This document shows, piece after piece, positions 26,179 to 54,220 of a stretch of 64,000 nt of DNA; position 1 is the first letter of the stretch; every line of letters begins with the position of its first letter. Source of the DNA: Phoronis australis (lineage: Eukaryota > Animalia > Phoronida); contig NMRA01000123.1 in assembly GCA_002633005.1 (NCBI GenBank), positions 832,656 through 896,655 of the forward strand. The letters run 5' to 3'. A model generated the notes under the pieces. The model had not been told where the DNA came from, made no database searches, and was given only the letters and a program-made list of their open reading frames with translations. Position numbers and translations under genes: made by a program.

Positions 26179-29100
26179 CTACTTGTGACCTGTCACCAAA
26201 GGTCGTCCATATGATCGGTTACTCTCCCAGCTCAGAGTGCTAGAGGTGCTATGGCCGCTACCTGGTCGAGCTCGATCAAACGTTGGTGAATTGGCCAACC
26301 GTCCATACACAGCATTAGGATCCTTGAAACGGTCCAGTTCAGCCCCTTTGGCTGCAAACTCATGGCTAAGGTCATCACCTATGGACGCCTGGTAGATGTT
26401 AGGATTGAACGGCTCAATGGGAGCCACGCTGCGAGGACGGAGACTGGTCTTCTTGGGCTTCTTCTTACGACACAGGAAAACTGTTGAAAGGAGCAAAAGT
26501 ATGGATGGCTATAGCGGCCATGATGCACATGACGCATAATTGTTGCAATATGGTTAAAATTCTTCAGTTTGGGACACAATTTGGCAGACAGGTTAAATTT
26601 CGTTTTGTTATAATGCTTAATCAAATTAACTTTTCAGGAAAATTTAAATTTTGCTTTTACCATGTTTTGCATGGTGTAGCTATACCAAACAACATTTGGT
26701 ATTTTTTTTAGTATTTGCAGCAACGGGGTAAGTCTGAAAAAAAATATGGCAGTTTTAGAAATTATTTTTGTCCCAAAATGCAGTACTTTTACCATAACCA
26801 AAACAATATTTGGAAATATAATTGAAACTATGTCAATATTACTCAGGTTTAAAGATCATGGATACTAGCTACGCTATTGAAACATAATTAGCCAGCTGTG
26901 CCCTCTATTGGCACGATCGGCTTACTGCTTTTCCATGTTTTGCCATGAGGTTTACATGGAATAACTGAATAAATAAGTCGCAAATTTCCTACAAACTTTC
27001 ATAATGTGAAAGCAAGAACACGTCATGGAAACCAATTGACTTCTGGTGAAAGCAGCAAGCGAAAGGCTGCTATTTATTAAAAACTGCAAAGAAAAAGTAC
27101 TATCTCCTTGTACAGCCAGGTGGCGATAATAGTCACCTGTCCCACCTGATCAGCCCCCCATTGCATTCTGAAGGACTCCAATTGATATGACATTTAAAAA
27201 ATAAAACCACCGGCAACTTACAAAGCAGGCCCAGTGCCGACAGTGCTGCGAGTATACCCAGAGGTACAGCTATACCAATGCCTATCTTCTCGGAGTTAGA
27301 CAGACCAGTCTTGTCATCAGGACCTCCGCTCAGGGATTCAGGATTGCCAGGATTGACAGGCTGTGTGGCAAGGCAATGGAATGAGAGTGAATCCAGTTGG
27401 TGAGGTAGGTCAATTACCAGGGCTTGGAATGACCAACAACAAAAAAGAGGATGTATTGTTTCACAAATAAAAAGGCTGGTGTGAAAGAAATATTTGTGTT
27501 GTAAGATTTAACTGAAATGAATGTTTTTGCATGATCAAAGTCAAAAGCATGATAAAAAAGACAAAAAAGAGATAACTGGAAATCAAATAAGAGGAAATCT
27601 AAACTAAAAAAGAGGAAATCCTGAAATGAGGAAAATTCCAAGCCCTGTTCCATCTTATCAAGGCAGTTCGTAAGTCGTGCCTTTCACTTCTGCGTTACGC
27701 TCTGAACTAACGAATCACACCTTATTACAGTACTAGTGATGATAATAGTAATAATAATAAAACAAACACAAAATATATAACATACTATCAATACAATCTG
27801 AAATTTCAAACACAGAAAAGCCATTATTTCCTACAACTAAAGGTTACGTCCTTAATTTCAAAACGCGTGAAAACATGAATGGTGTCGATAAGTATGGTAA
27901 TAATGTCTTACAGGATTAATACGTCCACCTCTGTAAGGCAAAACTCTGATAAGTAAAAGAAATGCTGGCATTACTATTAATTATCAGTAAAACTGCAAAC
28001 GTGCCATGTATTGCTGCCATCAGTGTGAAGCAAAGGAAACAGCTGATGTTCAATTCTCATTGGGTGCTGGTGAAATTTCAAATCATGTGTTTTCTCTTGT
28101 TGAGAATTCACCGAGGGCGCTTGCAAGACAATGGTCCCAGTGTGTATAAAAATACATTCCTGCAAACATCTAGCCCACAAATGCGTCCATGTAAAACAAC
28201 ATATTGTCAATGAATTCAAATAACAAAGACGCGCCATTTTTTATCAGCATCTCCACCAGGTACATGTCGATGCGGCCATTTTCTATTGATTCATGATATT
28301 AAAGTTGAGACTGGTCCGTTGTATTACCTTTTTTGATTTCTCAATAGATCTTTAGAAACATCTCGTCTTTGACTGTGATGAATCGTGGGAAATCTGGTCA
28401 CCTTTGATCTCGAAACTGCCCCTACACTCTTGTTCCAGATTTTATAGGAGGCCAGTTTAAACATCACACGTGACCAGAGTTCCCACGATTCATCACAGTC
28501 AACATCCCATCAAAGGTGATGAGATGTTTCTGAAGTCTAGGAAATCAAAAAGGTAACCCAGCAGACCAGTTTCAACTTTAATATCACGAACATTCCTGGA
28601 TGGCTCAATTCGAGGTCTACATTTTATTAATCACGCACTATTTTCATCTGATCTTCTAATTATGATTTTCAGTAACTATTAAAACACTTACTCTGATCTT
28701 ATTTTTGTCCTTTGACAATACTGCTGGATTTCTTGTCACTGGTTCGCAGCTACTCTGTGGCACCTGGCCACACAGGCTGCACGTCTCCATGGTGACAGCA
28801 CAGACGGAGACATTTGATTGGCTGGTCAAGTTACGCAATGATGCATTAGTCAGGTCGGAGGCATTGTAAACAATGAGAGTTGTGGTTCTAGTGACAGGCT
28901 CGACTGATGCTTGGAAAGACTTGCACATGGTTTTCTGGTGAAATAGAGAGAAAATGACATTTTTAGCATTAAAATCACAGATGGCATCTGAAAGAAACCT
29001 ACTTTAACTCTTTCACCTCCAAGTAACTGTCGGCCATTGTGTCCCTGAACCCCAAGTAACTTAGTACACATGGGCTGAACTGATGTGCTTGTTTTCAAAA

Positions 29101-32100
29101 TTCCATAAACAATCCATTTATCATTGAATTTCAAAGTGTAATACACCAAAATGTAGAGAACAGAATGAACTTTATCTACAAATTCACCAAAATTAAAAAA
29201 TCCCACTCTCTCATGTGATGCAGGTAAGTAACACCTGAAATGCCGGTGTTTGTTTGCCAATTTGCCAATTCAATGTATCGTTTAAAGAATAAAAATGATT
29301 TATGAGTAACAGTGTCGTGAATATTCTTCAGTAAAATTTCTTAAGATACGTTTTTAATCACATTTCACATCTTCTATTTACATTTGAAGTCCATAAAGTG
29401 ACTTAAATTAGGCGATCGTTAAGTTCAACGATTCAAATTTGTCCACTTCCGGTTGTGACTCGCGCTTCCTTTGGGCGTTCAAATTAATTACCCTGACAAT
29501 TTCACCGAATATTTCATCAATATAGAAATTTTTAAAGTACTCAACTTGCTTATCGTAACCATCGTAAACTCTAGAAGACTCCACATGTTCAGAAAATTTG
29601 CGAAGATGTCGAAGTTCAACGGCGTTTGTTTGACCCAATTGCGAAATTCGCGACCTGCAAAGTTTTCCTCCGGTTCAAAGCCATGTAATTCAACTTCTTT
29701 GTCGTAATAGTCAACAAAATCTGGCCAGATTTATAAGAATTCCTTTTTGGGTTATCTTGTATATTAATTAAGTAAAAAGTATACAAATTATTGCCAATTT
29801 CGTCATTTGAAAAGTCTACGTCTGAATCGCCGTCGGCCGACATTTTGTTTTCGCGAGTCATCGATCTAAATTCTTGGAAAACCCCTTCAATAACTCACGT
29901 TACCTCTCAGCAACGAATCAGAAAAGCTGTTAGAAATGAAGGTAAGGCTATATTTAAATTTGTGACGTACACAAAAGAATTCCCCTAATCAACCAATCAA
30001 ATATTCTGTTGCTTGGAAGTTCGGCATATCGTGAGACCGATAAAGCGGTCCACGGTGTTGAATGGAGGTAAGTTTCAGAGACCGCTTAAGCGGTCTGCGG
30101 TGTTGAAAGGGTTAAACATGCATTGTGCTTTCTGATTCAAATCACGTACAACTTCAAAATTGGTCTCGACTGCCTTGTAAACTGCAATGTGTTAAGAAAA
30201 AATGACAAAACTTAAGAGTTCACACATTGCGAAGTGGAACCATAAGTCAACATTTCCAATTAAAGTCCTAACTTAAGTCCCATGCTTCTGGACTCAAGCA
30301 CTTAAATGTGAGTGGTCCCCAAGCCCAAAAATTGCTTCCAATGTGAGTTAAGGAGGATGTGACGACTGTTTTCATATCACTGTAAATGGTCTAATTCACT
30401 GTGATATATGTTTATTGAAGGATACACAGAACATACAAAGAAATAATGGTCTAATTCAATAGTTTGTTTTTGATATAGGATGGCTACACCAACAGGTCCT
30501 ATGATATCATGAGTGGGTCTCGACCTCAATACTTAAAGGGCTGGACAAAGTTTAGGGACGGCCCTATAAATGCCATTTCTCATTTTTTATTTTAAATGCT
30601 CTCTGACTGAGCAGACATATTTCTAAGTTCAGTGAAAGTTATGCTATTTCACCTACCAAATCAGCAGTAAATGACACAGGGACAGGGTCAGTGGTTACCG
30701 TGGCAACAGATGTTGTAATTCTTTCTGTTGTAGACACTGTTGCATGTGACGCCTAAAACAGAAGATACATGTATGGAACAGAACCTTCTTTAGCGAAGCA
30801 ATTCTATTAAATATAACAGATTCCAATACCTACCATAAGGAATATACCATCACACAAGCACACAGATATTAAATTGTGATCTCAACACTAAGTAGAAGTG
30901 ATAAGTAATTATCAAGTGATAATATGTCAAACAAGAGCAGTCCCCGGGGCGACCACGGTGCATTGCAGTGTTTCTAGGGGTTTGGGTAAGGTACAATAGG
31001 GCTACACATTAATCAATTCTACCACAACGAGAAGGTGCAGTTAAGGCCCCTTGTTGACTAACTAGTACATGTCTTTGCATCATATAACTTAAAGTTAGTT
31101 GTCATTAGTTGTTAGTTGTTAGTTGTCCATTTAGTCACAATGACCTTAAGTACATGAAGACTTGTGGGGAACGCTGATGGACATGTTATGTAACTGTAAG
31201 CTTTACAATACGAAGTCTCCTGGATAAATTGAGAGGGAATACTTAGGTTAGCCTAGTTTACTTTTCAAAAATGCTACAGTTTAATACAGAGTCCTGTCGT
31301 ACCGACCATGTAACCATAAAAAATACCATAACACTATCATGATGAACAGGAACAAAAAGAATAAAAATTGTTGATAACTGATGTATGAATTACAACCAGT
31401 AAGTGAATAGTATCGTCAACAAGAATAGCAATGAAGGAACCTAACAAATAGTTTGTCTTGACACCTAGGGCAGCAAGCATTGGCATAATAATGTAGAACC
31501 TTACATCAGTAGTCACACGCTCTGTGGCTGTAGTCTGGGTAAACACTGGGAGAGTTGGCAGAGTGGTAGTAGTAGAAGTCACCGGCTTGACTGTCTCTAC
31601 AGTCTTCCCCTTCACTATGACAACAGGTGGAACGGGCGTGGTTGGATCACTGGTGGTGGACACTACTATTGTGGTGGTAAGGGGGGCACTGGTTGGACAC
31701 AGACTGAAAAAGATACACAAGAGGAATAAAAACATAGTATCCGAGTATACAGGTGAAAGGTGCGTTTTAACGATGCTCATCTTTGCTGATTCGTGAATCT
31801 AGAAATTTCTTCACCATATTATTGGTTTTAAGTTTGTTGGGAATGAGAAGCACCATGCGAATGAATCGAAGGCATCAATTATAGGAAAAAATAGCCAGAC
31901 CTGTGACTTTCTAAAGAATCATACTGTAGATGAATTGGTGATAGAAAAAAAATGTGATTGTGGTGAGGCCACAAAATAACAGCAAGTGAAGCTGGGTAAA
32001 AAAGAACCTCAACCCATTAAATCAGGCATCAGGTGACTTTTCTTTTTGAAAATAAAGGAAACTAAAATACCACATCACCAGCTCAGTTTTTATGACCAGT

Positions 32101-35100
32101 GCTACTTCTTAGCCTACACAGCATTATTGAGACCGCATGATTTTGCAGGCATAAATGGCCCTAAGTTTTGATTTTTTCTTCTCAGACAACAGATCATATA
32201 TTAAGAAAATGTTAAGAACTGAATTAAATTTGGTTACAAATGACAAGCAATCCCTGAGCTGACGCCAGCAAAAAGTTTCTTTACATACTTCCGTCACAAG
32301 ACATCTCGCTACACAATACGTTTCATTACCTGTAATAGTGCCCCTTGATGACTGCCACACTTAAACCCTTGACAGTAGTACTGGACAAGAGAGTCATCTT
32401 TAATTGTCCACTTTTGACGTACTGTTCTATCTGTGTGTACTTGTCCAGCAAGTAAACTGTGTCGTTGGATGGTTTGGTCAGAGTAAAAACTATAACATTC
32501 TGAAAACGTAATTTACATGTTACTGCCCTTCAACCTCAGCAGGTTAATTAACGACTGCACAATACATTTCCCAACCGGGAACTCTGAATGATCCTTACTG
32601 GTTAGCACAAACCAGAAACATGTTTGCTGCCAAATGAATTGGGAAACAATGACTGTTAGTGACAACACTACTTGCACTCTCAACACAACTGGCCGACTTG
32701 TACAGTAGCAGAACGACTATGTAAATCAGCGTGGAAATAAGATCGCAAACATTCTTAAGTCTTGTCTGCACACCATCTATTGGCGAGTCCTAGTCGCGGT
32801 AGAAATCTTTTCAGATTTATGTTCATTAAGTCAAGTGATGTGGCCAACAAGTAGGATGCAGATCAGACTTAAAATGTTTGCGATTTAACTAAATAACCTA
32901 AAACAATTGGAGATCTTTGTATTAAGGCGAGCACCTCCTGGGCCGGTATACCGACACATTACGTTTTTGTCTCTAATCGTTATCAATATCAAGCACTAAT
33001 GAATATCAATTAAATTAGTTTTTGGCCACAGTAAAAAAAAACGGTTTTTAATGAATATCAATGAATTGAAAACTACTACGCACATTTCTAAATAGATTCA
33101 TCACTTCTCATCAAAAATAGGCAAACCAATCATTAAGCCACTGCTATAAACAGCTTGAATTTCATTTTCCAAAATGTTGCATAAGTTTGCCAACTCCAAT
33201 ATAGAGCAAACTCTACAATCAACTCGAGCAAAACGTTCTTTTGTGGCGAAAATTAAAAACTCAACTATCACCTTTCTACCACGCATTGTCCAAACTGAAG
33301 AATTTTTTTGTTTAACATCAATTAACACCCACCTTTGCTACGTTATCTAAAGTGATTCCAGACAACAAGTGTGAGCTGAGCACGCCACCTAGTGATGACT
33401 TGAGATGAGTGAGGAGATCACGACGACTAGTGACATCTTTAGTCACCATGTTGGTGAAGTCATAATCCAGTGCCATGGCCAGAGTCAAACTGTGGAAAAA
33501 ACAGTAATTGTCAACCTTCGTGAAGTGCCTTTTAAATTTCCACTTCCTATCCATGAAAGTGCATTTACGAATCCTTGATGATTGAACAACTTTGACTCAT
33601 TCCTTCAAGTGCTGTGAAATCAATCACTGACTGTCATTCTTTTGTTTTGAACATGACTATCTAAAAAACCTATGCCTAACCTGCAGGCAACCTCGTGTTT
33701 GATCAACAACTTACATGGTACCTTAGCTGGAGACCGTTTATATACCAATACTTTCATATACGACGTGTGCATGACAGTCCATGTGCCTGCATGTTTCTGA
33801 AATAACATGATTTTTAAAAGTTTGCTCTTGAGCAATTAAAGGTGCTTTGTATGCGCCTAACTCTGCATAAAGGCACACCTTATATAAGCCCTTGGGTCTA
33901 ATTTTAGACATAGATACAACTTCTCATATAGATGGTTGGGCCTAAATACGTGCAGGTATGGTAATTTCAATAGCATCATAGCCAACAGTCACATTTATTT
34001 ACTTACTCTGTGTAGTCATCAACATTCCTGACCTCTAGAAGGTCGCGCCTATCACGTGGGCCAATCGTAAACTTGGATTTGGATGAGAACATTTTATGTA
34101 TCAAATCTTTTGTTCCGGCATTGACAGGCATCTTGACAGTTGCTTGAATGTCAAACTCCACACCATCCTGATTAAATGCGGAAGGTAAACAGAGATCAGA
34201 CAAATTGGTTCAATACAATTGTCATTCAGAGATGCAGAGAAAATGGATTGGTTAGATAGCAAGTTCATTCAGACCACATGCACAATACATTCTATCACTA
34301 CTAATAGACATTATTAGGATAAAGCATTGACTGAAAGCATACAGGCTGATTAGGTATCTCAGAACAGAAATTTAAAGTGATCAACAAGCACTCTACACCA
34401 GGCAGAAAAATAATACACAAAATATATTGAGTTTTGCCATTTATAGAATATGCATTAAAAATTACAAAACCCATACAGAAGCCTTGGAGATAATTCTGAA
34501 TTTCAAGCAAACAATATTGGACAACGACTGTTCATGATGAAAAAAAATTGAAATTTAACACCCTTAACCTGAAACACGGCCTAATACAACCAACATCATC
34601 ACTCACTGGGGTCAACTCCACCCTGACAAGTGATCTGACAGAGATGCGACCAATCAGTTCAGTCATCAGTTTTTTGTGGAAGTACTCTAGAGTCTCATTT
34701 CTTTGCAGCTCACTCAGCTCCAGAGTCTCATTACAGGGTATGAACGCAGTCATGGTCAGTCTGCAATAATTATTCATTAAATGCAGTCTAATCAAACTGA
34801 CAACGGGCAAAGCAAAGCCGCAATATATGTTATGGTATTAACAAAATCAACTTTTCCAAACAGTCGTATTAATGCTGTCCTACCCAAAAAAATGCCATTA
34901 CATTCTAATCCTTAACACAAACAATACATATTAATAAAGCAGAAAAATGGTTCCAGGTGATCAGTGCAGTGGGCCCACATGCACAACCTACGTACGTCTG
35001 GTGTAACGTGCACTAGACTGCCTGCAATTAATTTTTTATCCTTAACCCACACATTGCATTACGAGGCAAAAATGCTTATAAAACAGAAATGGCAACACTG

Positions 35101-38100
35101 AACACAACCTCACTGGTTAATTGCAGCGGCTATTTAATAACTGATTGCTCTCCGGGTTTGTTCTTGATGGGAAATGAGTGTCCACAGTTTTTCTAATTTA
35201 AGTTACTTTTATCATTATTACATCATTTATGCAAGCTCAAAATATTGACAACATTTTATCTCAAACAAAGTTTAAATCTGAACCACCAAAACTTGCCCAC
35301 GCTATAATTGTAACTAGTTCATGACTAAAATAAAGAGTAATCAAATATTTTGACACTGACAGCTCTTATAAATAAATTCTAAATTAATATAAAAACAAAA
35401 CTGAAAAAGTTCCCACGTACAATGTATTATTAATTCAAAACTACTCACGTCTCGGGCAGAAAGCAGTCGTTATCACAGCTTGGTACTTTATCTAGGTCAC
35501 ACCAATAACAGCCTTTCAGCGACTGACATGTGTCTTTGTTAGATCTAAAAAAATCCAAATATATACATACAGAAGGAGAAACAGTACTTGCGGTAAACAC
35601 ACAGTACTCGATAACTTGGTATACACACAATACTTCAGTGATAACAGTATACACACACACAACTTGATATCTTGGTATACGTACACTACCAGATAACTTG
35701 GTATAAACACACAACTTGATATCTTGGTACAAACACAATACTTGATAACGTGGTATACACATACTACTTGATAACTTGGTATACACACAGTGCTTGATAT
35801 CTTAGTATACACAGTGACTGACACAAACTAAAACATCCACCCACGTTGGCGGCAAACCACTATCAATCCTTTCAGCGAGAGCAGCCCCTAGAGGCATACA
35901 CAAGAACTATTTCCTCGCTGAACAGTATTCTCAGTAAATGAAACAGTGAACACCAGGGGACTGTTTTATGAAAACTAACTTCAGACTTAAGTCGGAAATT
36001 TGGTCTTATGCTCGACACAATTATTTCTAAAAAACAATTGAATCTAACTTTATCATAAATGTAAAGTTTCTGAGAATACACACAGAGCAGCTGGTTACTG
36101 GGATTAATTTCTGCAAATGATTTCTCAACTGTAACGCAGTCATAATTACTTGACTGAACCTTTTTCAGCAGCTGTGAAGAGGGACCGTAAGACAAAATTT
36201 CTGTCTTATGTCGTGTCTCACTTTCATGAAACAGACTCTCAAACACTAAATAATCGTGTAACTTTTTACCATACCCAACACTACAGTTAAAGCCACAGTC
36301 AACACCATAGCCGAGGTCATAACTCCAGTCAACAGGTGGCATTGGTGGTTGAGTCAGAGGAAGTAGCACCATCTGATGGTCATTGATGAAACTTTCAACG
36401 TCAGACAGGATACTTCCAGGGATGTCTGAGGGATGTTGAATCACGAAGCTCACTGTTGTCTGTAAAAGTCAGACAAAAGAATAAATTGCAAAGCAAATTT
36501 GAGGGATAAATAGTTCTTTCTTGCTCTCTCTATGTTCAATGTGCTTAAGGTTATATAGAACCTTATCCACAGGTTTGTGCACTTAGCCAAATACCTACAA
36601 ACGTATTAATACAAAATTAACTCACCAAAAGTATATAGTAGAAATTCCTTTGAATTTGAATTTTGGCTTTATGTGAATCTACCTCATGACCGTGCTTTTT
36701 AGGGAAATTTAGCAATAATAGAAACTTAACATACTTAAAATACATAACCAAATTTCTTGTGATATATAAATGTTCAACATAAAGTCTCAAAAATCCTGTT
36801 GTAGTTTTCTCTGTCGGTAAATTATTGTTTTGTTTTCATGTTATTATTTTTTAATAAAGGTCACACAAGTCCCATTTTTGACAGCCCTCATGCAAAAGTG
36901 AATTGGAAAACATAGCGTCCTAAAGCTTCATGTACATCACATAAGATATTTCTGAGATATGTTTCAAAGTTGGTCACAGTTAGAAATTTTGCTAACTGGT
37001 TCTAAAGAAAACTTGAAGTCGTACAAATGTCTCAAAAATGTGATGAAAATATTCCCAAGCAGTCACATGTTGTGCTGCATAACCAGTCATTAGTGAAATC
37101 TAAAAAAATGCATTTGACAATATGCCAGTCACAGTTCTTGCAGGATAAGAGATGCACTTGTACCTCTTTGTGAAGTCCTTTCAGTCGAAACAGTACAAGG
37201 AGGTATTTGAAATCATAGTTTGATTTATTATTCTTAATGTCAATTCACAGGGAATTGTGTCTCACATTTTTAATACACTGTTTTAACACCAGCGACTTCA
37301 GCCACCAAAGTCCCTTGGCTAAAGCAATACCTTTATTTTTGATGACTGATATTTCCATTGGCCGGAGTAAACTTTAAAATCAAAAATCTCACAAATGATT
37401 CTCTCGGCCATGGACCAGAGTGGAATGTCATGGGAGTTAACTCACTTCCTAAAGAGAAACTGATGTAAATAAAACCACTAAGAACTTTGACAATCAAAAA
37501 GATTTAAAATGGCGGATAAGTTTTAAAAATCTGTGTCAAACAACTTGCATATTGTAGTCCAGGAACAATCACGGGATTAAAGAAATGTTACTTTGAATAA
37601 CATCAAAGGAAATAGAGATAATAACTTTATGCGTGCTCGTAAAACACAAAATTTTTCTTAATTTTCATTTTTGTTGCTATATTTAACAAAATTTCACTAG
37701 TTGGCCATATTGTGTATTGAAGAAATAGCATAATATCCCTTATCTGACTAAATATTCCGTTAGATAAGGACAATGGTGTTGTGCCTCCAGTATAGGAATT
37801 TAGCTGATCGTGGGATCATTACGCCCAGACCGTGTCTTGCGATTCACCTTGAGGTGAATTTGCAATGAATTCAAGCAGAAAAATGTGACACACCTTTCCC
37901 AGTTGGATATCAGATATGGTTTCTGCGATGTCCCTCGGGAAGTAAGTAGAGACCATTTCCTGCAGTTTCTTGGACACTCGCTCACGTAGACCCACGTCAC
38001 TGCTGACTAGCTTCTCCAAGTCGAGGCTGTCGTCATACTTCAGGGTTAGTGTGGCTCTGTTAAAAGATCGGATGAGACTGTCTACAGTACAGTCAGTTAA

Positions 38101-38486
38101 CCCACCCCAAGACTTCTGAAAACCCAGACACGTTTGCACTGCTAATAGGATCTGTCTATTGTATGCGGTGATCCATGAACCCGGTAAGCAACCAGCAAGT
38201 CGAAGTCTTTCAGATGTCATTAACAAATTGATTGCGATTTTCCAGGTAATGAATCGTTCCACAAATAAATAAGATTGTGTGATAGAAATATTTTTTCTTG
38301 CATGAATAAAGTCAAAATATTGATAAAAAGAGCCTAAAAAGAGGAAACTGGAAGTCAAATAAGAGGGCATTGGAACCAAAAATCCTTTTACAAGAGCAAA
38401 ATTCTAAGCACTGCATGGAATAGATGCCCCCCCACAAGACAATAAAAGATAAAAACAAGGAAGCTAGTAAAAAGAAAAAGAAATTA

Positions 38487-38528
<42 letters not shown>

Positions 38529-41500
38529 GACTGCTACAATGTCATACACTGGGAACACCCAGAAGGTCTTAGATCTCAGAGAACAACACTTACTCAGTGT
38601 AATCCCCTTCCACTCTCACTTTAAATTGAGTGGGGTTGTTGTCAGGACCTATGGTGAACACACGCTTCTTCAAATGACCAATCAACTTCAACCAAGATTC
38701 AGAAAGAGGCTTTTGACCCAGAACACCGACAATCTCAACACTGATGGTATTCTGGAAGATTAAAGTTGCTTTAATGACATTTATTTAACAGAATCTGATA
38801 CAATAACGTAATTCATCCATTATTGAATACTTTGACTTAACGCTCATTCCCTGATATTTGAGTTGCTTAATGTGGAGGGCATCAAGAGATTTGTACAAGA
38901 ACCACTGACATCATCAATGCTCCTTATCACAAACACTGATCTAAGTTCTTTTTGTGTGGAGCAGGGAAATTACTATAATAGTGATGACTTTAAACCAATA
39001 AAATTCTGGCTCACCTCACTTCAAATGTAGCAAAACTAGTCATTTCAAGCCAAAACGATACGACTGGATTTGATTTGCTGACCAATACCCCATAAAGGCG
39101 GATATCAGTTTATCTTAATGCATTCATCCTCAGAGAGCCACTATGCAATAAAAAAGACTGAGAGAACAACACCCTATGGAACAATTGATATTTGAATTTC
39201 AAACTGCAGTTGTCTGAGGTTGAAACTAACGAAACATTTTATTTTATAATGATCTGGACAATAAAAGTGGATGCACTAAATGTCTGCCCTCAATGTACAT
39301 CTCAATTCCTACCTTCACCAAAGTGATGCTGTCAACTGCCTTAACATCAAGGTCAGCCAAACCAGCTAAGTCTACTGCCACACTGTGCTCGATCTGATCA
39401 ACCACTTGGGGTGAAAGGTCAGAGGTCAGACATGGCAATACCAAGGTAATATTTGATACTCTACAAAAACAAATTTTACTCTTATTACATATTGAAAATT
39501 GCACACAAGTGTTTTTGTAACAGGCAGAATGCAGGGCAAATCATTGCAACAATTAATGGTGAAATACCAAAATTTGATAATTTTCATGAACCTAAATATT
39601 CAAATACTATGGCTATGTTACACTGGGGCTCGTGATCACCTGACTAACCCAAAGATCTGACAATTTCATTGTTAATTTGCTAGGGCAGCAAAAAGCCTAA
39701 CAACACAATGCCCATGCATAACTGAGTCAACTTTACCCATGACCTTAAAGCAACCTAAAATACTACGTAATTCTAGGCAAAAAAATTTCATTAAAAATTT
39801 AAAAAGCAGTCACTAGTTTCAAATAAAGAATTTGAACAAAAAACAAACACTAAAAACTGCAGGATATTTTTAGCAGCTTGCAAACAATTTTGGTTTCAAG
39901 TATTATATATATTTAAAGAGTTTGACCAATTTCAAGAGCTAACTACTTACTATATGCGCACATGATAGTCCACTTCAAACACAGACACAGGTACAGAGCA
40001 GTTCCAAAGAGACTGTATGCCATGAACTCATTCAAAGCCATTCAACATTTGAAACAGACAACACACTGAAGTACTCACCTCTCCTGCAGCAGACAATCAT
40101 TTCCACAGTAGGGCACCTTGTCCAGCAAGCACCACTGACAGTCGTGTTCTCGCTCACAAGAAGGCGCTGTTGTCCTAAAATTATCACAATGTTAAATTGG
40201 CTTTGAGTGCTTAGCAGGTGCTCTATCAGAAAAACAACCCACAATCCACACAGTTTGGTGCCAACAGGGCTGTGGTCCCTGGACGCAAGACAGGCAGGTG
40301 AGTACAAATAATCAATTAATCAATTTTCACCAAATCTATTGTTCAATTATAGAAACTTATCCAGGGTTAGTCCAGTAAAACTTTTTCCATGCACCAGTAT
40401 ATGACAGAACAGAAAAACTTGTCCAATTTTGCAAGAACAGATTGAAAAACTTGACTTATGTCTTATTTTGCAGGGTCCCCATAGAAAGCAGTGTGAACTG
40501 ATGGGGCTATCCTCATTGTAAATATTACATTAATAAATAAATAAATAATAAATAAAGAAATAAATAAAAAAAAACAAAAAACTTGTTTAACATTGCAAGT
40601 TCAGAAAAACTTGTCCAATTTTGCAGTAAAAATGAGTAAAAAATGGACATTTCACTACAAAATCAGTCTGTACTCTACATAACACCTGCCACCACAACAG
40701 TTCAGCACTGAATAATGCAAAATGGGAGTGAAAGATAGAAAAATCATGACTTTCAATTGGTACAATAAATATTTTTGTTCGAATTAAAAAAAAATTACCA
40801 CAAATAAAATGTTCCCAATTTTCGAATGAGAAATGTTACACAGAATTTCAGTTGGTTGTCATATTATAAGTTATTAGGAGATACCACCAACATGTGTGTG
40901 AGAAGGATTTTTTAATTTAAAAAATACACAGTTTATTATAAATTAAAGTGTTATTTTAAAAGATGATTTTCTTTCAGCGATGAACTGCATCAAACTTCAA
41001 ATGTTGGCCATCACTAAACATACCTTTGAGTACACCGGCTGGGGCACAGGTCTCTGAAACCTCCCTCGATGACACTAGATGTCGCCCCAATATAGTCAGA
41101 CGGATCTGCCCACAGCTTTGCGACCTCATGCAGGAGGTCAACTTTGGAGTCGGGTCGTTTTGATATCACGTAACTTACGCGATTCTGTACAAAAGAAAGC
41201 AGGCTTCAAGCTAATAAAACCATTATCTAGCGCTTTGACTTAAACATTTAAGCAAGCCAAACATTAAACTGAGATTTCGTGTACAAAATAATAGCCACAA
41301 TTCATTTCTGGATAATTTTTCAGCGGCATAAGCATACGTACCTTTCACGTCTTAAAATTGGTGGGCATGGCAGAAAATTCCAAGTCAAATAAACAATAAT
41401 CTTTCCATATGATTACCAGGGGTGGACACCGATTCCATCTTTCATAAGATTATCAGGGGGGGATGAAGCCACCCCTGGTTGTGCCCCTAAGTTCCAACTA

Positions 41501-44500
41501 TCACTGATGACCCTTTGAAATCGGGTCAAGACTAGCAGACCTAAGGTACATAAATCCAAGGACCATCTACTCTAAGCTCTGAACAAGAGCTGAAAATGCT
41601 CCACTCAGTGACCAAACTCCAGCACAATTACAGACAAGAGTCCTCACAAAGACTTAGTGGCATATTTGGTTCTCATAGCTGGAACTTACATACCCAGCTA
41701 CGGCACTGATTACACACCTTAAGTACCAAAGAAACGAAATGAGATCCGACCCAAATTAATTTATATCCAAAATCAAAAAATCTAATCATCCAAGTGATCA
41801 CCTCTACAATCCACAGATTACCATACGTCAGACCAGTGTTTAGTTTTGCAGCCACCAGTTGCTTCAGCTTATGGTCCAAATTCAGACGGACGTCAAGAGA
41901 TGTGGCAAGCTCTTTATTAAAATCCCGATCGCTGAACAAACTAGTGACTTTCACACTGAAAGAAAAAAAATGAAATGTTAAATGGAGGTTAGTTCCTTCC
42001 CCAGCTAGATGAACCTAATCACCTGACATCATTAAACAATAATGCGAATGTTAAGTATTTCGTACATATGTGTGGATTGATTCATACAATTTGCGAGAAA
42101 TTGATCTTGTTGGTTTATAATAAAGTTTTGCACTCAAAATGAAGATATACCAATATCAAGTCACTTCATATCCTTCTGGGGTCCAGTTTCCTTATAACAA
42201 ATCTTTTGGGACGTTAGCTAAATAGAATGATCCATCCATTACTCTTAAAGGGGCAACAACCATCGACAGACAGGCCAGTGCCGCCCTTGTATTTACTCAT
42301 CTGCTACTGACAGTTACAAAGTCATTCTTTCTTTGAGGGTAGAGTGTGCTTTAGTCCCACAGTCTCAGCATGGTACAGCATCAAACCGTTGCATTATCAT
42401 TGTGAAACAGCGCCCCCTATATTTCTCATAATCTTCTGCATTTATTCCACAGTTATGCCACATGTCATTCAGTCAGCCACCTCACCTAGTGAAGTCAGTT
42501 GATTGTCGAGCAACATAGCGCGTTGGGTCGAGGCGAGGACCAATGCTCAACTGACCAGAAGAGATGAGATGTTGAAGTGCCCTAGACAAGTCTTGCAGAG
42601 ATTTACCATTCATTGATGTTTGGAGGTCAAAGGTTATGATGCTCTGAAAACAAGACAAGTAATCAGTAATTTTGAACAAAAATAAGCACCAAAGCTATCT
42701 ATTTTGTGACTGATCACCAGTTTACCACATTGCAACAAGCAATCAAATAAGATAATTAAAAGTACAGTTAATGTATCGGAGCTGTGTAGTGATATCCACG
42801 CTATTAACTGATGTGGAATCTTCTTCAGTTAATGTTTATTTTGTTTGAGGAAATGTGCTAAGCCAAGTTTGGGACAAGCAATCGGACAAACTCACTCCAT
42901 TTCTAGCCAAATTGCTTATGGTGGCAGGTGACACTGATAGCGCCAGCGACACCTTTTGGTGAAAACTGTCAAGAATTTCACTCTCTTCTCCACTAGGCAG
43001 ATGCTCCATGCATGGGAAGAAGGCTGATGCATGTAATCTGTAAAGCAGGAATACAGGATTAATAGCCACACTTTGCAGAGTTGTGGTTAAATTGTAGATA
43101 CTGCAGTCTGCAGGGCAGTACATTTGTTTCAAATATTTAGCAGCCAAGTATTCATGTTGTCACATTTATGCCGCTAAACACTACATATTACGATACTAAG
43201 TATTCCGTGCAGGGGCACAAACCTTGTTCACAACCTTGAATTACTAATTGTCTTAATCCCACATTCACATATGCACACAATTACCGCACTTGCATGACTG
43301 TATTGTTTACATAATTCTCAAATTGTCTCAAATATAGGAAACAGTATATAGATCACCCCTGAGTTAAAGATGTATAACTTTAGGTACATGCAATGCAAAT
43401 TAGCGACGTCGTGTTATGTATTCTAAGTGATACCAACCTTTCTGGGAGAGTACAGTTTTGGCCACAGTGAGGCTCCCCATCGAAAATGCACCAATCACAA
43501 CCCACAGACAGATGACAACTGACTTCTTCTGAGCTGAAGGGAGAAAAGAAGCTAATTTCCCAAAAATTATACCAGTTACACAAGATTAACCAGAACCAGA
43601 ATTAAATACTGAACTTTCAAAAGTAATTTTTTAATTGATGGTGGTGCACCAACAAAATGGCTGCCAAAGTTGAACAGGATTGACAGTCACTTTCAATGCA
43701 TTGCCAGTAAAAACAAAACATGAAATTTACGAAATTTTCCTTATGTTAGTAACATCTCTCGAGAGATGAAATTCCTTGTGGTTAGTGCTTATTACCACAC
43801 AAAAGCAGAATGGACATTTTCTTGCAATGAAAACACAACAAACTAGATTGATGCAGCTAGATTGGTTTTAGTAAAGTACAAGATTCAGCCACTTGGAATT
43901 ACAAGACAGTTAGAAATATTGTAGTTTGAAAAGAAGATGATTGTTATGACAAAACTTCAATTAACAATACAATGTGGCATATAAGACAATGAAGGCTAGT
44001 GAGATTTTGGCGCAGTTATTGCGACAAAAGAGTACTTCACAATGATTAATACTAATCACCTGCCATCAAACAATGAGCAGCATTTGCAGTAGTGGTAAAA
44101 GTCTTCCATAAATGGAAAATTGCAATAATTGTTAAACATTAAGCAGTCTTTAGACAACAGGGATCTGAGTTACAGTTTGGCTTACTTGACCTCAGATCTG
44201 TTTAACTTGTGCTAAAAGTGTTATGTGCAGGTCTTTCATTTTTGTTGTACCTTGATGAACACAGAGTTGGACACAGTTCATAGAATGTGCCACTGATCTC
44301 TATAGAAGACGGGGCCCTGCTCACTCCCTCAATGGAGAATTGGACTTTACCAGTCTTCAATTTGTTAGCCAGTTTGGCGGCTTCTTCCATTAAGTTCACA
44401 GGGGAATTGGGTTCCTTCTTAATAGTGAAAGGAATGTTGTCCTAAATCAGAAAAATAGTAAATGCGTAAAAGTTACGAAACGCACCATTACCTGCCCCCA

Positions 44501-47500
44501 GGCAATGCTCAAAGAACTCCAAACTAACCACATATTGTGTACGGCTTGAACCGACATTGCAAGTTTTGTGGCAAAAATCGTGCTGATCATTTAACCAAAT
44601 TTTACAAATAAAATAAAACATAAGCTACATAAGCTTATTTTCCACCAGTTACGAGATGAAACGAATCCATGTGATGTCATAAAAAACACCATACTTTAAA
44701 CTAACTAGATAGAATGAATACCAGATCTATTTACAGACACATCATCAAAGCAAAGAGTCCTGTACTTGAAGGCTGAATGTTAGCATCATCCCGTTAAGAA
44801 TCAAAACGTGATGTAAGCAAGCTTAAAATAAGCCTAATGTAAATTGATAAGATGATTAAATGGCAATGAAAGTTAACTGGTTTGCAATGGCTTCAATTTG
44901 AGGTTGTGTAGGATCTTATCGATAAGATTGGGTTTAGCTAAGTGAAAGCAAAAATTACAACACAGTATAAGTAATTCTTTTGTGAAAGTAGAAAGTCTGC
45001 AGTGTTTGATTTTTGACTTTTTACCAATCTGATGTTGATGCAGTTTTCTAAATCATCTTTTTGTTTTCATTATATAAAACTTATTATTCACGAATACCAT
45101 AAAAGTCCCAATTTTTTGATAGGTCCTCATGCAAAAGTGGAACATTTTTTAAACAATTCCCAACTACGTTTTATAAAATAGATGATAACGCATAGTATGT
45201 GAAAGTTTTTTCATATGAATCCAATCAGACGTCTCTGAGATATGATGTTTCAAAGTTGTACTTATACATAGGTGGCGCACTACAGGGGGTTGGGGGGGGC
45301 TACATTAGCCCCAACTTTTTCAGTGTTGCGCTGCCCATGCAATATATGGACGTGACCTTAACTGTTGTAACTACACAACATTACCTGTCAAAGCTAATAT
45401 TTAACAGAAACCAGCTTTCAGTAGACTTTAAGGACAAAAAAATGTCGCAAAATACAGTGTATTTCGTTTTCAAAAATAAAACACAATAAAACACGTTCAC
45501 TCAACTCTATGGCATGTGTAAAAGGGCAAAATTATCACACTCGAAACCGTACTACAGTCACAACCAAACCATATGAATGTCTGATTCTGATGATACCTTT
45601 CCAATCCACACATTAGCCACAGTCTCTGATACAGCACTGGTGAATGTTTCATGTCCCAGTTTCTTAAGCTGATGCTCCAAGTTGTTTCGCGCTGTAAGCG
45701 GGTGACGCCTTGAAGTTTCGATCAAATCCACACCATCAAAGTTCAGCTGAATGCGAACACTGAAGGGAATTCAGACACAAGAAAAGGGATAAGCAATATT
45801 CAGCATTTTCAGGGAATATTTATTATTTTATCATTAATTAAAAAATATCGCACCATTTCTTCAAAGTAGATTTAAATTGAAATATTAATCGCGTAAGACT
45901 ACGAAGCAAAGAAACAACCAAAGGGACACTAAATTATTGAAACTAAAATGCATGATAGCACTATAAATACAAAATTGAAGGAAATGAAAACATTTACGAA
46001 ACACAAACCTACTGTATTAAGTGCAGGCTAAAACAAACACAGATGAATGCGTTTCAAAGATAACAGTGGACTGACACCTTAAACACCAAAACCAAATATC
46101 TTTATACATTTTAATATTACTCCCACAACACAAATTATGAGTAACACACACTGTTTACAGCCAGATATTATAATACTCACTTAGTGAAGTCCTTACTGTC
46201 TCTGCTGATGTACTTGGATGGGCTGCTGTTTGGGCCCACATTGAATGGAATATCCAAGATGGCACTGTTGACAGCTTTATTTATCTCACTGAGAGAAGAG
46301 CTCAGAACTGAAGGTTGCACAACAAATGAAATGGTGCCGCCCTAGAACAGGTGTTGTGAATTCTAGCAATAAACAGAGCATGGCAAACTATTGACAACAA
46401 AAGGTATCTCAATAATTATACATAGTGATCATCAAACTTCACTAATCTTGATTCACACATAAAAGTATGAGCCCCAAAGTGAATTCCATCTAATAATCCC
46501 AAAAATGCATTTTCGGCAATAGAATTGCCAAACGTCCTTCTAACAACAAATTTGGGTCCAAACAGAATCAAACTTTCTTAAAAACAAGATCCCTAAAAAC
46601 ATCTGTTGTTCAGTAACTCACCGGTAAAAGTTCAACAGAATGAACATTCTTTTCAGTTACATCGGGCAGGCGACCCAACAAATTAGCTTTGAAAATGTCC
46701 TGAATTTCTTGCTTTTCAGCACCAAGAAGGACATTAACATCTAAGCAGGGGAAGAACATCTGGTGGTTGGATCTGAAAATTCATTATACGCTTTATTTGA
46801 TATACATGTTACAATGTTCTAAAATGTCATTTTGTTTTAGTTGCAGATTGGATTTTAGTTATTCGATAATTTCGAAACGTGAACAAAACTCCTATTGGAA
46901 GTTTCTCACCTTTCTTGTAGCAAGGTGTTATTACTGCAATGGGGCGGGGCAGACAGTCTGTCCCAAGAACAACCAATGATCTGTGAGCATGTGGTTTGAT
47001 TCAGTCTGGAATTAAAAACATTAACACAAAATGAAAGGTCCAAACTCAATAATATTTTAATCACTACAGGAAAAACTCCACGAAAATGTGTAATAACAAA
47101 CAGAATAGAGGAAAAAATCTTGATGCAGCCATTGTGTGCGCTTAAGTGCAGTGAAATTAAAAGCACTGTCAGTGGTTACTTCTATTTCGACGTACAAACC
47201 AAAACCTTTTGTTCTTGTATAGAACAAGAGGTTCTCTCATCATCAATGAGATGACAAAGGAGAATTTGTGACTATCAGGGTGGAACAGAAACAGTACGTG
47301 GGTCACTGTGTTTTCACACAAACTCTAATTGACAAAATAAGACACAACACATGGCTCCAGGTTATTTTACCTCAACATCAACTTCCTTTCTTAAACTGCA
47401 AACATGAAGTGTCCACGACACAAACTCCAGATCTTACGCACGTGTCATGGAACCTACAGATTTGTGCACTAAGGCAAATATCTAACAGCTATTAATAGAA

Positions 47501-50500
47501 TTTATCCAAGTGATGATGGGAAAGTAAATAGTAAATTTTTTTTTACATGTCTGTAGAATTTGCTTTTCAAATTTGGTTTTCACAAATCGTAGCCCCAAAT
47601 TTGTCTACTAAGATACACTCAAATCAACACAATGTAATCAATATCATAATTGACCAAATTTCCTTTGATATAAATGTTCCAAAGTGAAATCACCACTATA
47701 TTCTAAATTATCCTCGTCATTTGTTTTAAGAGAATTTCAAGTCTTGAGTTTGTGAAGACTTTACATGAGACCAGGCTCCTTGCGTTGGCCTGACACAGCT
47801 GGTGGTTATATACGTCCACTGAGGTCCTGAGCTATTTACAAACTATCAGTTCTTCACATTAGTCCAGGAAATCTCTTCTAGTCTGGTCTGAGAAGGGACC
47901 GAATCAAAAGTTTTGTTTTTTAACAGAAGGCCAATTTATAGCAACTTTCGAAACGTGTCGTCTCATACCCTTGTTCACAAGGCATCGGACAATGTTGCTG
48001 GAAGGACCCATGATAGTCAAGTGCCGTGGCAACAAAAGTGTCACCCGCGGCAACATCAAGCTGCCTGTTCAGGACGGCCTTGTGTAGGAGGTCTAGTAAG
48101 TCTAGCAGCCTGTAGGTGTCATCGATGTCTTTGTGAATGCTGAAGGATAGAGTGTCCTGCAAAAACAGAAAATTTTGAGGGCTACAAATCTAAAGATGAG
48201 TTTAGTAAGTTTTAAAAGAGGGTGATCCTTTAAAGAAGAATGCATTTAGAATGAAACGTCATGAATAATAAAGCTGCCATGCTAGCATTATGATGATTTA
48301 CGCATTATTCAAAATTCCGACCAGTGCTGCAGTGGTGAAATTAGAGATAAGTAGGCGCTTAAAGCCCATTGTATCACCTTGAGCACTGAACGTAACTTAC
48401 GGTGCGTAGGCGCTACGTTCAAATGCCAAAAGGTGGTTGGCTGCGCCTACGTGCGCCTATGCAATACTACAACACTGATTCAGACAAATTTGAAGTTGCT
48501 TTTACTCAAAACAACACAAAGGAACGAATCACATTAATAATTATGATGATTGTAAACCAATAACCTGTAGCTAAAACCAACATTTAATCCAGATACTTAG
48601 TATTGTAATAAAAATGGTACACTTGCAGTTCATTTCACTGTCAACAACTGAAACCAATGGCTCTGATCATCAAACACTTCACTCACGACAAGAATTGTAT
48701 GATGGCACTTGACTTACCTCAAAATACAACTGCTGCCTGGTGGTTTGGTAATTAGCCTAATTATGTAACACACCCAGCAGAATTAATGAGGAGCACAGTA
48801 GGGCACGATTAAAAAGAAGTTTTATGCTGTGAAAGTCAGATTACTTGCCTGATTTTCAAACTCAAAAACTTAATCACATGCACTTTTCAAAACCTACTTA
48901 AATGCGCTGTTTATAAGCTTTCAAAACAGCGTGTTTATGATGAGTCTTATTAACCTAGAGAACAATATCATCAGCACCCTCGGTCAATATTGAGAGACAA
49001 ACTTTTTTTAAAACTAGATGGCACATTTAGCAAAAACCTCCTCTCACACAAGGTCAAGTAATTCATACAATATTACAGTGGAATATTAATTACAACACCA
49101 TGGTGTCTTTGATCAGGGTCGACAACTAAATTTTGAAGTACGCCAACCGGTCAAGTAGCCCAATCTTGACCGGTGAGGGTGTCAACATAGGGTTCTTTGC
49201 AAGGCTAACAAACACACAGTCCATATGACTGTTAAGCTTAAGCAGGAAAGTGATTTCCTTTGACATTCTAATCTCAAATTTCATAGGACAAAAAGCACAA
49301 CATTGTAACTTCCATCTTCAACGACACTGGCTTTTTTGTGCATGCCAATGTTTTGGTAATTTGCCGATGTAACAGCAGCGAAGATTTAAAACACCAAAAA
49401 AACCTTTGTGCTTTGAATTTCCATTCAAATCACAGAGTAAACTCTGTAACTTAGAGTCCTGAGCAAATGTCCACCAAGAAATTCTATCACTATTGATGAC
49501 ATAGCTTGTTTGAAAGGATTTATCCTATACCTACCAATTCAAGTCCTCTGCAATTAAACTTAGTCATTACCTTTTGTATGATAATATTTCCAACAGTAGC
49601 AAACACATTATGAGGCAGTACAATCTTCAACTTGGCCATCAGACTAGCTTCAATCTGCTGACGTTTGGCAACATTTGCAGTCTCCGTTAACACCTTATCA
49701 AAGTCCACTCCTTTGTAGAGCAAGTTGAACTTCATGCTAAAAAATTGACAAGCAGAATGTTTAATTTGCTACTGACATTTATAACATAATATCCACCCTA
49801 TCAACCCACGCACTTGTACCTGGGAAGTTCCAAAAACGAGGGGGCAGGGTGGGTTTATATACCATGGAGAGGTGGGATTGTATAGTACGTGAGTCTAGAT
49901 TGAATATTCATGTAAAGCCCAAGGGCTTGACATTTGACATATGTCTGTGATGAACATGCAGCGCCAGGATACTTTCTGAGCTATTTTGTACTAAGTGGCT
50001 TAGAGTCAGAGCAGATTAGCAGCAAGAGAAGAGGTTGATTTGATGGGAACTGGGTGGTAAGAGCAAGTGGCAGAATACATTAGTGACACATTCACATATT
50101 CAAGTTTCACTAATGTGATAATTCAAGTCACTACACAATAGAGGGCAGGACATATCAACAAAGGAGCAGCAGCTACATTACACACTATTTCTGCTTTCTT
50201 CCATGGAAGCTAACCAATTTTCTGTTCTGACAATAGACAATTTTCAATGACCAATCAAGTTTTTATGGTGCACAGTGCGTAAAATGTGTAGGGGGGGGGA
50301 TGTTGCCATGAACAAGCAGTGGTTATCACTGATACCCATCTCTGTTACCTAATCCTGAAACAAAGCCAGTCATCAAAGTCCAGGCACTGTGGTAAGTGGC
50401 TATTATAATCCCAACAGGAAAGAATTCATAGCTGCCAGTTGGGAATGTGATGTAGGGCATGATACAAGATTAAGTGAGCTTGTAGGCAAAACTGAGGGAT

Positions 50501-53500
50501 GGGCAATTCACAGGAGAGCTTGGAAGACAACGACTTCCTGCTTGTAACTTTATGGTTCTCACTTGTAATGTTTTCATTTTCAGACTTTTCCCATATACAA
50601 TAAAATCTCACATTTGGACGAAAACAATTGTCAAATTATTTAATTTTTATTCACTTTTTAAAGGCTTCCAACAGTCTTGTGAATGCCCAAAATTTCTCAA
50701 AGTCTGTTTGATGGTAGCTATGGTACATAGCTTAAAATGGTAAAGCATTCATAAGAAAGTTTTATGCAACCAACTGAAAAAAAACAAATAAAATTTCATG
50801 TGTTGGCCTTATTGTTTCAGTTTGGTGAGATTCCCCGTTATTTTCATATTACATGAACTTGTTCTAACACAAAATTTAAAAAAGAGCAATTTTTTTAGTA
50901 ATGACTCTAGCATAAGTTAAGTGAACGGATGAAATTAGGTTTTTCCATGAGTTTTCCCCCCGAGTTTTTATTATCTGCAATTTCCCATTAAGATTTGCAC
51001 GGTTTTCGATGAAAAATGAAAGTCCTGCAATGCAAGTATGCAAATTTAAATATGCTATTACTCTGCTTTGCATACAACAAAAACTTAGGCTAGTTTGTAG
51101 TCTTAAGAAATTATGGTGAGAATGAAGGTGAAAGCTACACTGGAATGCAAACAACGCAGATGTTGCAAAAAGTTCAAAGTTGACAGAGCGAGACAAAATT
51201 GTACGTACTCTGTAAAATCCAGTTCTTGCCTGCTTCTGTACTTGTCTGGGTGGGTCGCCGTGCCAACAGTGAAGACGTTATTCCAATCTAACATTGCAGC
51301 TAGTCTCCTTGACAACTTCGATAAGGGCGGGTCTTTCATGGCTCCTTGCAGTGTGAATGACAACTGATTTTTGGTACCCTTAAAAACGACAAAACCAGTT
51401 TAACATTAATCATACCAGTGCTAAGCACGTCTTCCTCGCATTTGCTTATCACACAATCAAGTGATGGCCAAGCACTGGAAACAAGAGAAGGAACAGAAAC
51501 TTTACTCAATAAATTTCGAATGGGATTTCATCAAAGTTTCACTTAGAAAAAAAGCTGAAAATTTTGGCCGTGAACCCAGGTACGATTCCAGGACAACAAC
51601 CATTGCCGACACTGGATTCAGGCATAACATTCTCAGTTGGATAGCCTCCTAACACCACACATCACTTACACGACCGTGTACAAAATATTCAAATCAAATC
51701 CTTGACAAATGCCCAATACCATTTTTGCAGCTTCCCAAATACACGCCCTATAGGATTGTGACCAGAACAGATGATTACTGTCATTATTATGGGGATTAAT
51801 TTAACAAAATGAAATTCCCTTTTCTGTCATATTGTGTCCTAAGCTGAAGCATTCCACAGTAATTCCAAGAAAACAATAATTTCAATTTATCATTCCAAGA
51901 GTCTTACCTCCACAAATGACCATGAGTGAAGAGCCTTCCTGGAGATGTTTGGCAAGAGCGAGTGTATCTTTAAACTAAGAGATTGAAGAAGATGGCTTCT
52001 CTGTTGGGGGTCCAACTCGGTGAAGTCAGCACACGGGAAGAACACATTCACAGGAGTGCTGAAAATTTTAGCAAAACTATGAGAAAACAGTGGCAGAACC
52101 TGTTTTTTGTAATAATTCATACAATATCATTGTGTTGCTCCCACAGGTTACACTTTAGCAACCAATTCTCTGTGTGCATGCCAAACTATGACAAAGTATC
52201 ACGGAGGTTATCACCACAAACATCATTAGCAAATCACTGATCATATAGAATTAAAAATCGTCAGATTACAAAATTTGTGCAACATATTGAGTAAAGATGA
52301 ATACCGGGGTCCGAATGCTGCTAGTCGAAAGCACAAAAATAGCCATTGGTCTTACTCTGGCAACACAACCTGAAACAAAAGTTTCACCGAAATCCACAAG
52401 AAGAAATAAGTAATAAGTTATGGCCGCCAAGGAGTGCAGTTACCAGTCGCAGTAAACCACTGTGCAGTCTGAAATCAGTTAACTGTCAAAATCCACATAG
52501 TAGTCAACATCAATCGAAATAACAGGATTTAAAATGAGAAGTTGTTGGCAACCAAGAGACACTTCTAAGTTGGAATTATACATTATCTTTCTAAAACTTG
52601 CCAATGCCATCGATGTCACATCGAAGTAAAATTTCTGCAAAAAAAATATTGAGCATGAGCTATGCATACATAACTAGCCAATGAGACGATTACACTCTGC
52701 GGGGAACGACATTCGGGTACACTGTCAATTGACTGGTCATACAACTTTATTACTTCAGCCAAGTTGTTTTCAATTGTAAAACCACAACTTCTGTACTTTT
52801 AATCGGAGGTCACTTTTGATATTTAAATCGAATTTGTGCAGAAAAATACAAATTGTTCTAAAACCCCATTCGACCCCACATCCCGCGACCCCTCGACCCA
52901 CAACCCCCTCGACCCAGTCTAAACAAGCTCGACTCGATCTGAACATAAAACATGCACCGACTTGCAGAATCCATGAGTTGGGCTGTGAGCTCAGCTGGCT
53001 TTTCCTTGTTCTTTTGCAATTAAGAGAGTCGATTCTGCAAGTTTGAAAGCCAAAAAACAGAAAATAAACAATGTGACCAAATCAAATCAGAGACCTACCA
53101 ATGTTACAAATGTCATTCCCCGCAGAGTATAATCGTCTCATCTGCTCTTCAGTGAATAGCAGATTCAACCTTTTTTTTTCGGAGAGTGCCAGGAACCGAC
53201 AAAACTGTAATTCCATCAGTAAATAAAGTTTGAAAAAATAAACTGTTAAATAAAAAGTATTTCAACGTTATATGGGAGTATATTGTAAACAAGTATACAA
53301 CAGAAAGAAAATATTAAAAATAAAAATGTGAAATTATGTACATTCCCTTTAACGCACTCTTCACCTAAGTTCAGTAGAACAGGACCATTGGTAGCCGCTC
53401 ACGGAACTAGCGTGACAATGATAGCGCCCTCACAATGCGCTATTTCAGATCACGTTCTCGCGCAGCTTTCTGCTTTTAATCACCCGACTTGAACCAGAGT

Positions 53501-54152: not shown

Positions 54153-54220
54153 GACAAGAGCAAGAACGACGCAAATTGGTTTTATTTTCTTCTTACTACT
54201 TAAAAATATTTATTGTTCAT

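Follow-up and report, generated by a model that had tools for sequence, protein, structure and literature searches.

We analysed a 64,000-nucleotide window of the Phoronis australis genome (contig NMRA01000123.1), which contains a minus-strand gene for a putative membrane receptor. The gene model was assembled from splice-site candidates and comprises 29 exons between positions 52058 and 26179 of the window. GT donors and AG acceptors are present at 28 of 28 introns. The exons join into a single open frame that codes for about 1,540 residues, counted from exon 52058 onward, and has its only stop at the end. GC content is 0.47 in exons and 0.356 in introns. The encoded protein has five cassettes, each made of a domain A and a domain B, four cysteine (Cys) modules, a Ser/Thr-rich stalk, a single transmembrane (TM) helix and a tail. 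RNA reads show the gene to be expressed and spliced. It apparently belongs to an undescribed family, in which known folds are found in a new arrangement.

Exons 1-24 form the five cassettes. Each is ordered A1, A2, B1, B2 and a 96-nt Cys exon, except cassette 5, which has no Cys exon. Intron phases are 2-0-2-0-2-2 in every copy. This confirms the five-fold repetition of a five-exon cassette, with a last copy short of its 96-nt exon, that the original prediction had described. All ten pairs of cassettes gave z values of 11.5-50.7 (100 shuffles each). A cassette profile, built partly from the same exons, retrieved exactly the 24 cassette exons at E < 1e-7 and had no match upstream.

RNA evidence was drawn from three raw runs (X1-X3) and one contig set carrying the same species label, over the stretches 38500-58499 and 49450-52840. 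Reads sit on the exons, and their strandedness is that of a minus-strand transcript. X1 covers them deeply, X2 sparsely and X3 hardly at all. Reads support at least 8 of the 16 introns of the covered stretches. Domain A of cassette 1 (51209..52058; exons 52058-51908 and 51378-51209) is joined internally by 11 reads at 51378/51908 and to domain B by 14 reads at 49736/51209. Domain B (47969..49736; exons 49736-49571 and 48156-47969) is traced by 19 loose read ends at 49570 that match exon 48156, and by 21 reads at 47005/47969 leading into the first Cys exon. In cassette 2, domain A (46181..46772; exons 46772-46622 and 46341-46181) is linked to domain B (44251..45759; exons 45759-45597 and 44441-44251) by 19 reads at 45759/46181, which span six letters with two differing positions. 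Domain B is in turn linked to the second Cys exon by 29 reads at 43533/44251. For cassette 3, 23 reads at 41955/42486 connect domain A (42486..43037; exons 43037-42896 and 42643-42486) with a shortened domain B (41024..41955; exons 41955-41802 and 41184-41024), which was placed by the exon chain and the cassette profile. For cassette 4, 19 reads of X1 at 38751/39313 join the two exons of domain A (38594..39460; exons 39460-39313 and 38751-38594). Domain B of cassette 4 (36275..38056; exons 38056-37894 and 36459-36275) and domains A (34007..34760; exons 34760-34607 and 34167-34007) and B (32330..33489; exons 33489-33333 and 32499-32330) of cassette 5 were placed by the chain and the profile. 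The joining of the exons is therefore confirmed by RNA for part of the gene; the 12 introns below 38500 lie outside the RNA comparison and are based on splice sites, frame and homology.

The 5' end differs from the original prediction, which had placed the start at an ATG at 54220. This ATG is followed by a stop after six codons, and depth is zero at 53841-54507 in all four RNA sets. In X1, exon 2 has a depth of about 24 and exon 1 one of about 8; this drop suggests a nearby transcript start. A candidate 14-nt micro-exon (52356..52369, minus strand) is in frame with exon 52058 and has splice-site scores of 8.9 and 7.8. With thresholds of 9 and 7, similar sites occur once in 19,865 intronic bases. 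No read depth is seen at 52072-52641, the stretch that contains this candidate, and the upstream partner of exon 52058 was not among the loose read ends listed. A scan of the window for a signal-peptide exon returned four candidates, none of them convincing. Dispersed repeats at 52850-53700, 48300-48500 and 57150-58500 attract reads of both strands in all runs and could conceal a short 5' exon. An inverted repeat pair is located near 52893/53598.

A profile comparison shows A and B to be related (E 4e-5, probability 69%), and a phase-0 intron falls in the same hairpin of each. A structure model of an orthologous cassette from the brachiopod Lingula predicts the order strand-helix-strand-strand-helix-strand in both domains. 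Search for structural similarities with this model returned SEA or SEA-like domains as best matches. On the basis of the ortholog model and the fold search, A and B are predicted to adopt a SEA-like, ferredoxin-type fold. This supports the SEA-like domains of the original prediction. An earlier fold based on amphioxus (three rows) had a pLDDT of 43 and was kept as a second look only. By sequence the domains escape detection. Pfam SEA (PF01390) gave no match at E up to 1 for the 29 exons and the full relatives, and 17 members of the alignment had none at E up to 10 either; single exons gave nothing above threshold against Pfam. Sequence searches of solved structures with the cassettes gave nothing significant. 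An Atlas search gave nothing at 0.9 or above; its SEA cluster, with a score of 0.76, is a lead only, and the structures that it returned were porter domains of AcrB at TM scores below 0.4.

Self-cleaving SEA domains of mucins of the MUC1 type carry a G-S-hydrophobic motif in the hairpin between strands 2 and 3. This pattern was matched three times in 15 cassette rows. Of the 28 domains, one has it in the hairpin, domain A of cassette 3, and the counterpart Lingula domain lacks it. No conserved autoproteolysis motif was found across the cassette rows. The protein thus differs from SEA-type membrane mucins such as MUC16 and MUC1: its A-B pairs alternate with Cys modules, it has no Pfam SEA or other sequence match and no conserved autoproteolysis motif, and the stalk below the array is short. 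Trop2/EpCAM, SorCS2 (SoMP), protocadherin-15 and dystroglycan have one or two SEA-like domains each, mostly near the membrane. In contrast, the Phoronis protein has ten in five pairs; identity is 6-13%.

An alternative is a role in cell-cell adhesion or self/non-self recognition, in the manner of EpCAM/Trop2, with a variable outer cassette. X1 contains two versions of the cassette-1 exons (49571-49736, 51209-51378 and 51908-52058), most differences being present in about half of the reads. At least 16 differences are distributed across 15 codons, 9 of which change a residue, and three of the residue changes cluster in one predicted helix of domain A. The two versions could be alleles or a paralogue. 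However, these differences come from one run and may reflect a paralogue or ordinary high polymorphism, and a fold in common proves no function. We consider an adhesion or recognition role unlikely.

The Cys modules are encoded by 96-nt exons at 46910..47005, 43438..43533, 40079..40174 and 35449..35544, all placed by the exon chain, and each draws one further cysteine from the exon before it. The motif C-x5-C-x-W-C-x7-C-x3-C, which the original prediction had given for the exon in general, holds for modules 2, 3 and 4; module 1 is reduced and lacks two of these cysteines, one pair. Thirteen modules were compared, four from the window, six from Lingula and three from amphioxus. Six cysteines are found in nine of them. 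In the other four, both the cysteine after W and the final one are missing, and neither is ever lost singly. The four paired losses may represent one event. The C-x-W-C core is shared with PSI domains of plexins, semaphorins, integrins and MET/RON. In RON, the disulfides of the PSI domain are reported as Cys527-545, 536-552, 548-558 and 533-567 (PMC3405059). The spacing of 9 between the first and second cysteines in 11 of the 13 modules equals that from Cys527 to Cys536. Module cysteines fit three of these four disulfides, and the jointly lost pair is the equivalent of 548-558. Judged by sequence, and with a PSI pairing of 1-4, 3-6, 5-7 and 2-8, the jointly absent pair would fit the 5-7 bond, and the 2-8 pair is absent. 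Unlike PSI domains, the module has six cysteines rather than eight, and sits between SEA-like pairs rather than after a Sema domain.

A PSI-like character of the module, claimed in the original prediction, is therefore suggested by the cysteine spacing and the paired loss, but it finds no echo in Pfam PSI, which matched neither the window exons nor the relatives, and the module region of the cassette model has a pLDDT below 50. Sequence searches of solved structures gave integrin beta-8 as best match of the module at E 1.4, which is not significant, and a four-exon profile matched no PSI chain. Cassettes 1 to 5 contain 6, 8, 8, 8 and 2 cysteines. In cassette 5, where the Cys module is absent, the two that persist are located in the early part of domain A and at the domain B terminus; such cysteines may form a disulfide clasping each A-B unit. 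In amphioxus, the first cassette (near residue 1930) lacks domain A, and a cysteine just before B could substitute as clasp partner.

The cassettes are followed by a mucin-like stalk (30657..31703; exons 31703-31505 and 30752-30657) of 96 residues, with 41% Ser/Thr, 11% Pro and 17% Val. No long tandem repeats were seen in it, and it is shorter than the long Pro/Thr/Ser (PTS) regions by which membrane mucins are recognised. The juxtamembrane exon (28692..28934) encodes 81 residues with five cysteines and four N-glycosylation sequons, and has no clear counterpart in the Lingula and amphioxus relatives. The exon with the single TM helix (27222..27360) was assigned by hydropathy and is 56% identical to both Lingula and amphioxus. 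Fifteen sequons and the Ser/Thr stalk lie ahead of the helix and basic residues behind it; no signal peptide was found in the window. The last exon (26179..26480), placed by the chain, the tail profile and alignments, encodes the cytoplasmic tail and the stop. This tail has about 97 residues. Its conserved core of 44 residues has an identity of 58% with Lingula and 61% with amphioxus, and the tail is about twice as conserved as the ectodomain. A conserved F-x-x-N-I-Y segment is present; no canonical NPxY, ITIM or dileucine motif and no recognisable effector domain were found in the tail. One TM helix followed by a tail was also part of the original prediction.

To find relatives, a profile of the five A2 exons was first run on 1.84 billion cluster representatives. 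This gave five matches, including one Lingula anatina protein at E 2e-20. The other four were unrelated repetitive proteins and were dropped. The Lingula cluster has four members, all labelled uncharacterised. The longest of them, Lingula XP_013389013.1, aligns with the window model cassette by cassette (30% identity over 1,304 columns; 52% over TM helix and tail) and has at least 1.5 extra cassettes at its truncated N-terminus. A profile of the TM helix and tail reached Branchiostoma floridae proteins at E 4e-22. Because these amphioxus matches carry the same cassettes, arranged as B-Cys, A-B-Cys and A-B (23-27% identity to the window cassettes), the tail profile led independently to the same ectodomain. 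Lingula LOC106157809, LOC106152849 and LOC112042769 and Branchiostoma LOC118415806 and LOC144872953 share the cassette, TM helix and tail, but differ in the number of cassettes, in how long the stalk is and where it lies, and in their N-terminal domains. The mucin stalk of the original prediction exists here as a Ser/Thr stretch but is not constant in the family; in amphioxus, the PTS region lies N-terminal to the cassettes. Since the cassettes are collinear with Lingula, the duplications are judged to be old, as had been proposed, although the cassette tree (two partial rows excluded) backs this for the last cassette pair only: the last cassette is the sole supported clade (91/98), and the remainder is without resolution. 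In Lingula XP_013389013.1, the tail runs on into HEPN_DZIP3 and NACHT domains (residues 2090-3180). These are probably two merged genes, because the second Lingula copy stops after the tail; if real, the extension would make a membrane-anchored NLR-like fusion.

The relatives found carry automatic, uncharacterised names only, in line with the earlier statement that the architecture matches no named family. It is very improbable that the family has already been described or that the gene model is mis-joined. One amphioxus relative is labelled 'SEA domain-containing protein' in UniRef, the twelve 3' introns lie outside the RNA check, and our literature search, which found no description of the family, covered neither subscription papers nor supplements, which could mention such loci. 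Against this, Pfam gave no family at threshold over the cassette and tail regions of the relatives, no solved structure was matched by sequence, and collinearity with Lingula through TM helix and tail largely refutes mis-joining. Word-based searches retrieved nothing with one exon, and only the query among 7,994 candidates with the Lingula cassettes. Such negatives outside Lingula and amphioxus are weak, as they relied on word sharing or on a short profile. A metagenome scan returned one locus among 74 candidates, a short chance match overlapping apparent bacterial genes, which was rejected.

A newer amphioxus model, XP_078595853.1 (2,728 residues), opens with a hydrophobic leader, likely a signal peptide, followed by VWA, Cache, an extra Cys module, a chitin-binding CBM_14 domain and a long PTS region, and then the cassettes. 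Its VWA domain has an intact D-x-S-x-S motif, the VWA metal-site motif, at residues 210-225; the CACHD1 chain in the alignment lacks it. For the head, the match to CACHD1 has an E of 6e-82 and that to alpha2delta-1 one of 2e-16. At the end of the head lies the same kind of Cys module, which matches the cassette profile at E 5e-7, and in the alignment table the CACHD1 match reaches residue 1057 in both proteins, within that module. CACHD1 is described in PMC7615972 as composed of Cache, VWA and FZI domains, without a SEA array. Its C-terminal ectodomain region binds Frizzled and is reported there and in the preprint to be without structural match. That the Cys module is part of this Frizzled-binding region is a lead only.

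These features would suit a CACHD1-like co-receptor whose VWA/Cache head is encoded outside the window, with the cassettes as spacer and Wnt receptors or calcium channels as targets. An amphioxus protein joining such a head to the cassettes, its far stronger match to CACHD1 than to alpha2delta-1, and the shared terminal Cys module argue for it. In contrast, the 64-kb window contains no VWA or Cache exons, and no such head is seen in the protein modelled from it. The fall in depth over the first two exons resembles a nearby transcript 5' end, and an apparent plus-strand gene lies upstream. An older annotation divides the amphioxus gene into two models; the first of these has no evident TM helix at its end, an argument for the join of head and cassettes. 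The Lingula models are truncated N-terminally and have no bearing on the head. For the Phoronis protein, we hold a co-receptor of this kind to be distinctly unlikely.

A Notch-like mechanical switch would place a protease site in a SEA-like domain, exposed by force, with shedding and release of the tail as a signal. Receptors with a SEA-like domain and a structured neighbour are reported to have acted as force-induced proteolytic switches in a cell assay (PMC6586460), and PMC10327162 is a further precedent. The last cassette adjoins the membrane in amphioxus and is the one supported clade of the tree. However, about 200 residues separate the last domain from the membrane here and about 390 in Lingula, the putative A-B clasp would oppose unfolding, and the short tail offers no recognisable effector domain. 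Such a switch is quite improbable.

Several other features were observed in the window. From 55019 onward, a probable plus-strand gene lies head-to-head with the receptor gene. It has an ATG at about 55019 followed by a good donor, short exon-like pieces near 59370 and 59893, and hardly any reads of its own strand at its first exon; one piece scanned against Pfam gave no match. On the same strand, at 59700-62870, a 1,057-base unit occurs three times (100% and 96.6% identical), with a 63-base exon-like piece in each. It is either a recent exon duplication or an assembly duplication. A PhyH-family dioxygenase exon is found at 20076-20345 on the plus strand (Pfam E 1e-4). At 1312-1728, on the minus strand, lies an exon that we take to resemble the start of a caveolin; this piece had no Pfam match. 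An assembly gap of 137 N (21721-21857) is outside the receptor gene.

Our preferred reading, which we regard as evenly balanced between right and wrong, is that the protein serves at the cell surface as a mucin-like, non-cleaving tether or receptor whose tail is conserved. Cassette array, TM helix and tail are constant in the three animals, while cassette number, Ser/Thr position and head vary; a spacer or tether reporting to a cytoplasmic partner fits this pattern. Five SEA-like pairs and PSI-like knots above a Ser/Thr stalk would make a long tether that does not cleave itself. Each A-B pair, held by one disulfide, would be a compact two-domain unit resistant to unfolding, and the Cys modules may act as three-disulfide hinges. 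The array would be a spacer whose length and outer end depend on the lineage, the amphioxus end being a CACHD1-like head with a chitin-binding domain. The tether would bind something extracellular, perhaps matrix, mucus or a microbial surface, and couple to cytoplasmic adaptors through its tail, possibly a trafficking or cytoskeletal adaptor bound via F-x-x-N-I-Y.

A wider proposal, tentative and on balance doubtful, is that the SEA-pair/PSI array, together with its TM helix and tail, forms an ancient receptor chassis of bilaterians with lineage-specific heads and no known vertebrate member. Its linking Cys module would be a homologue of the Cys region at the C-terminus of CACHD1, and the family would be an undescribed CACHD1-type branch that couples a new cytoplasmic signalling motif to the binding of matrix or chitin.

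Irrespective of this proposal, the family, being common to a protostome (brachiopod) and a chordate (amphioxus), is probably as old as bilaterians, and its cassettes and tail escape detection by Pfam. It adds paired arrays, probably clasped by disulfides, to the settings in which SEA-like domains occur, and its amphioxus form links such arrays with the CACHD1/alpha2delta family and chitin binding. Conservation of the tail at about twice the level of the ectodomain points to a conserved binding partner that can be sought directly.

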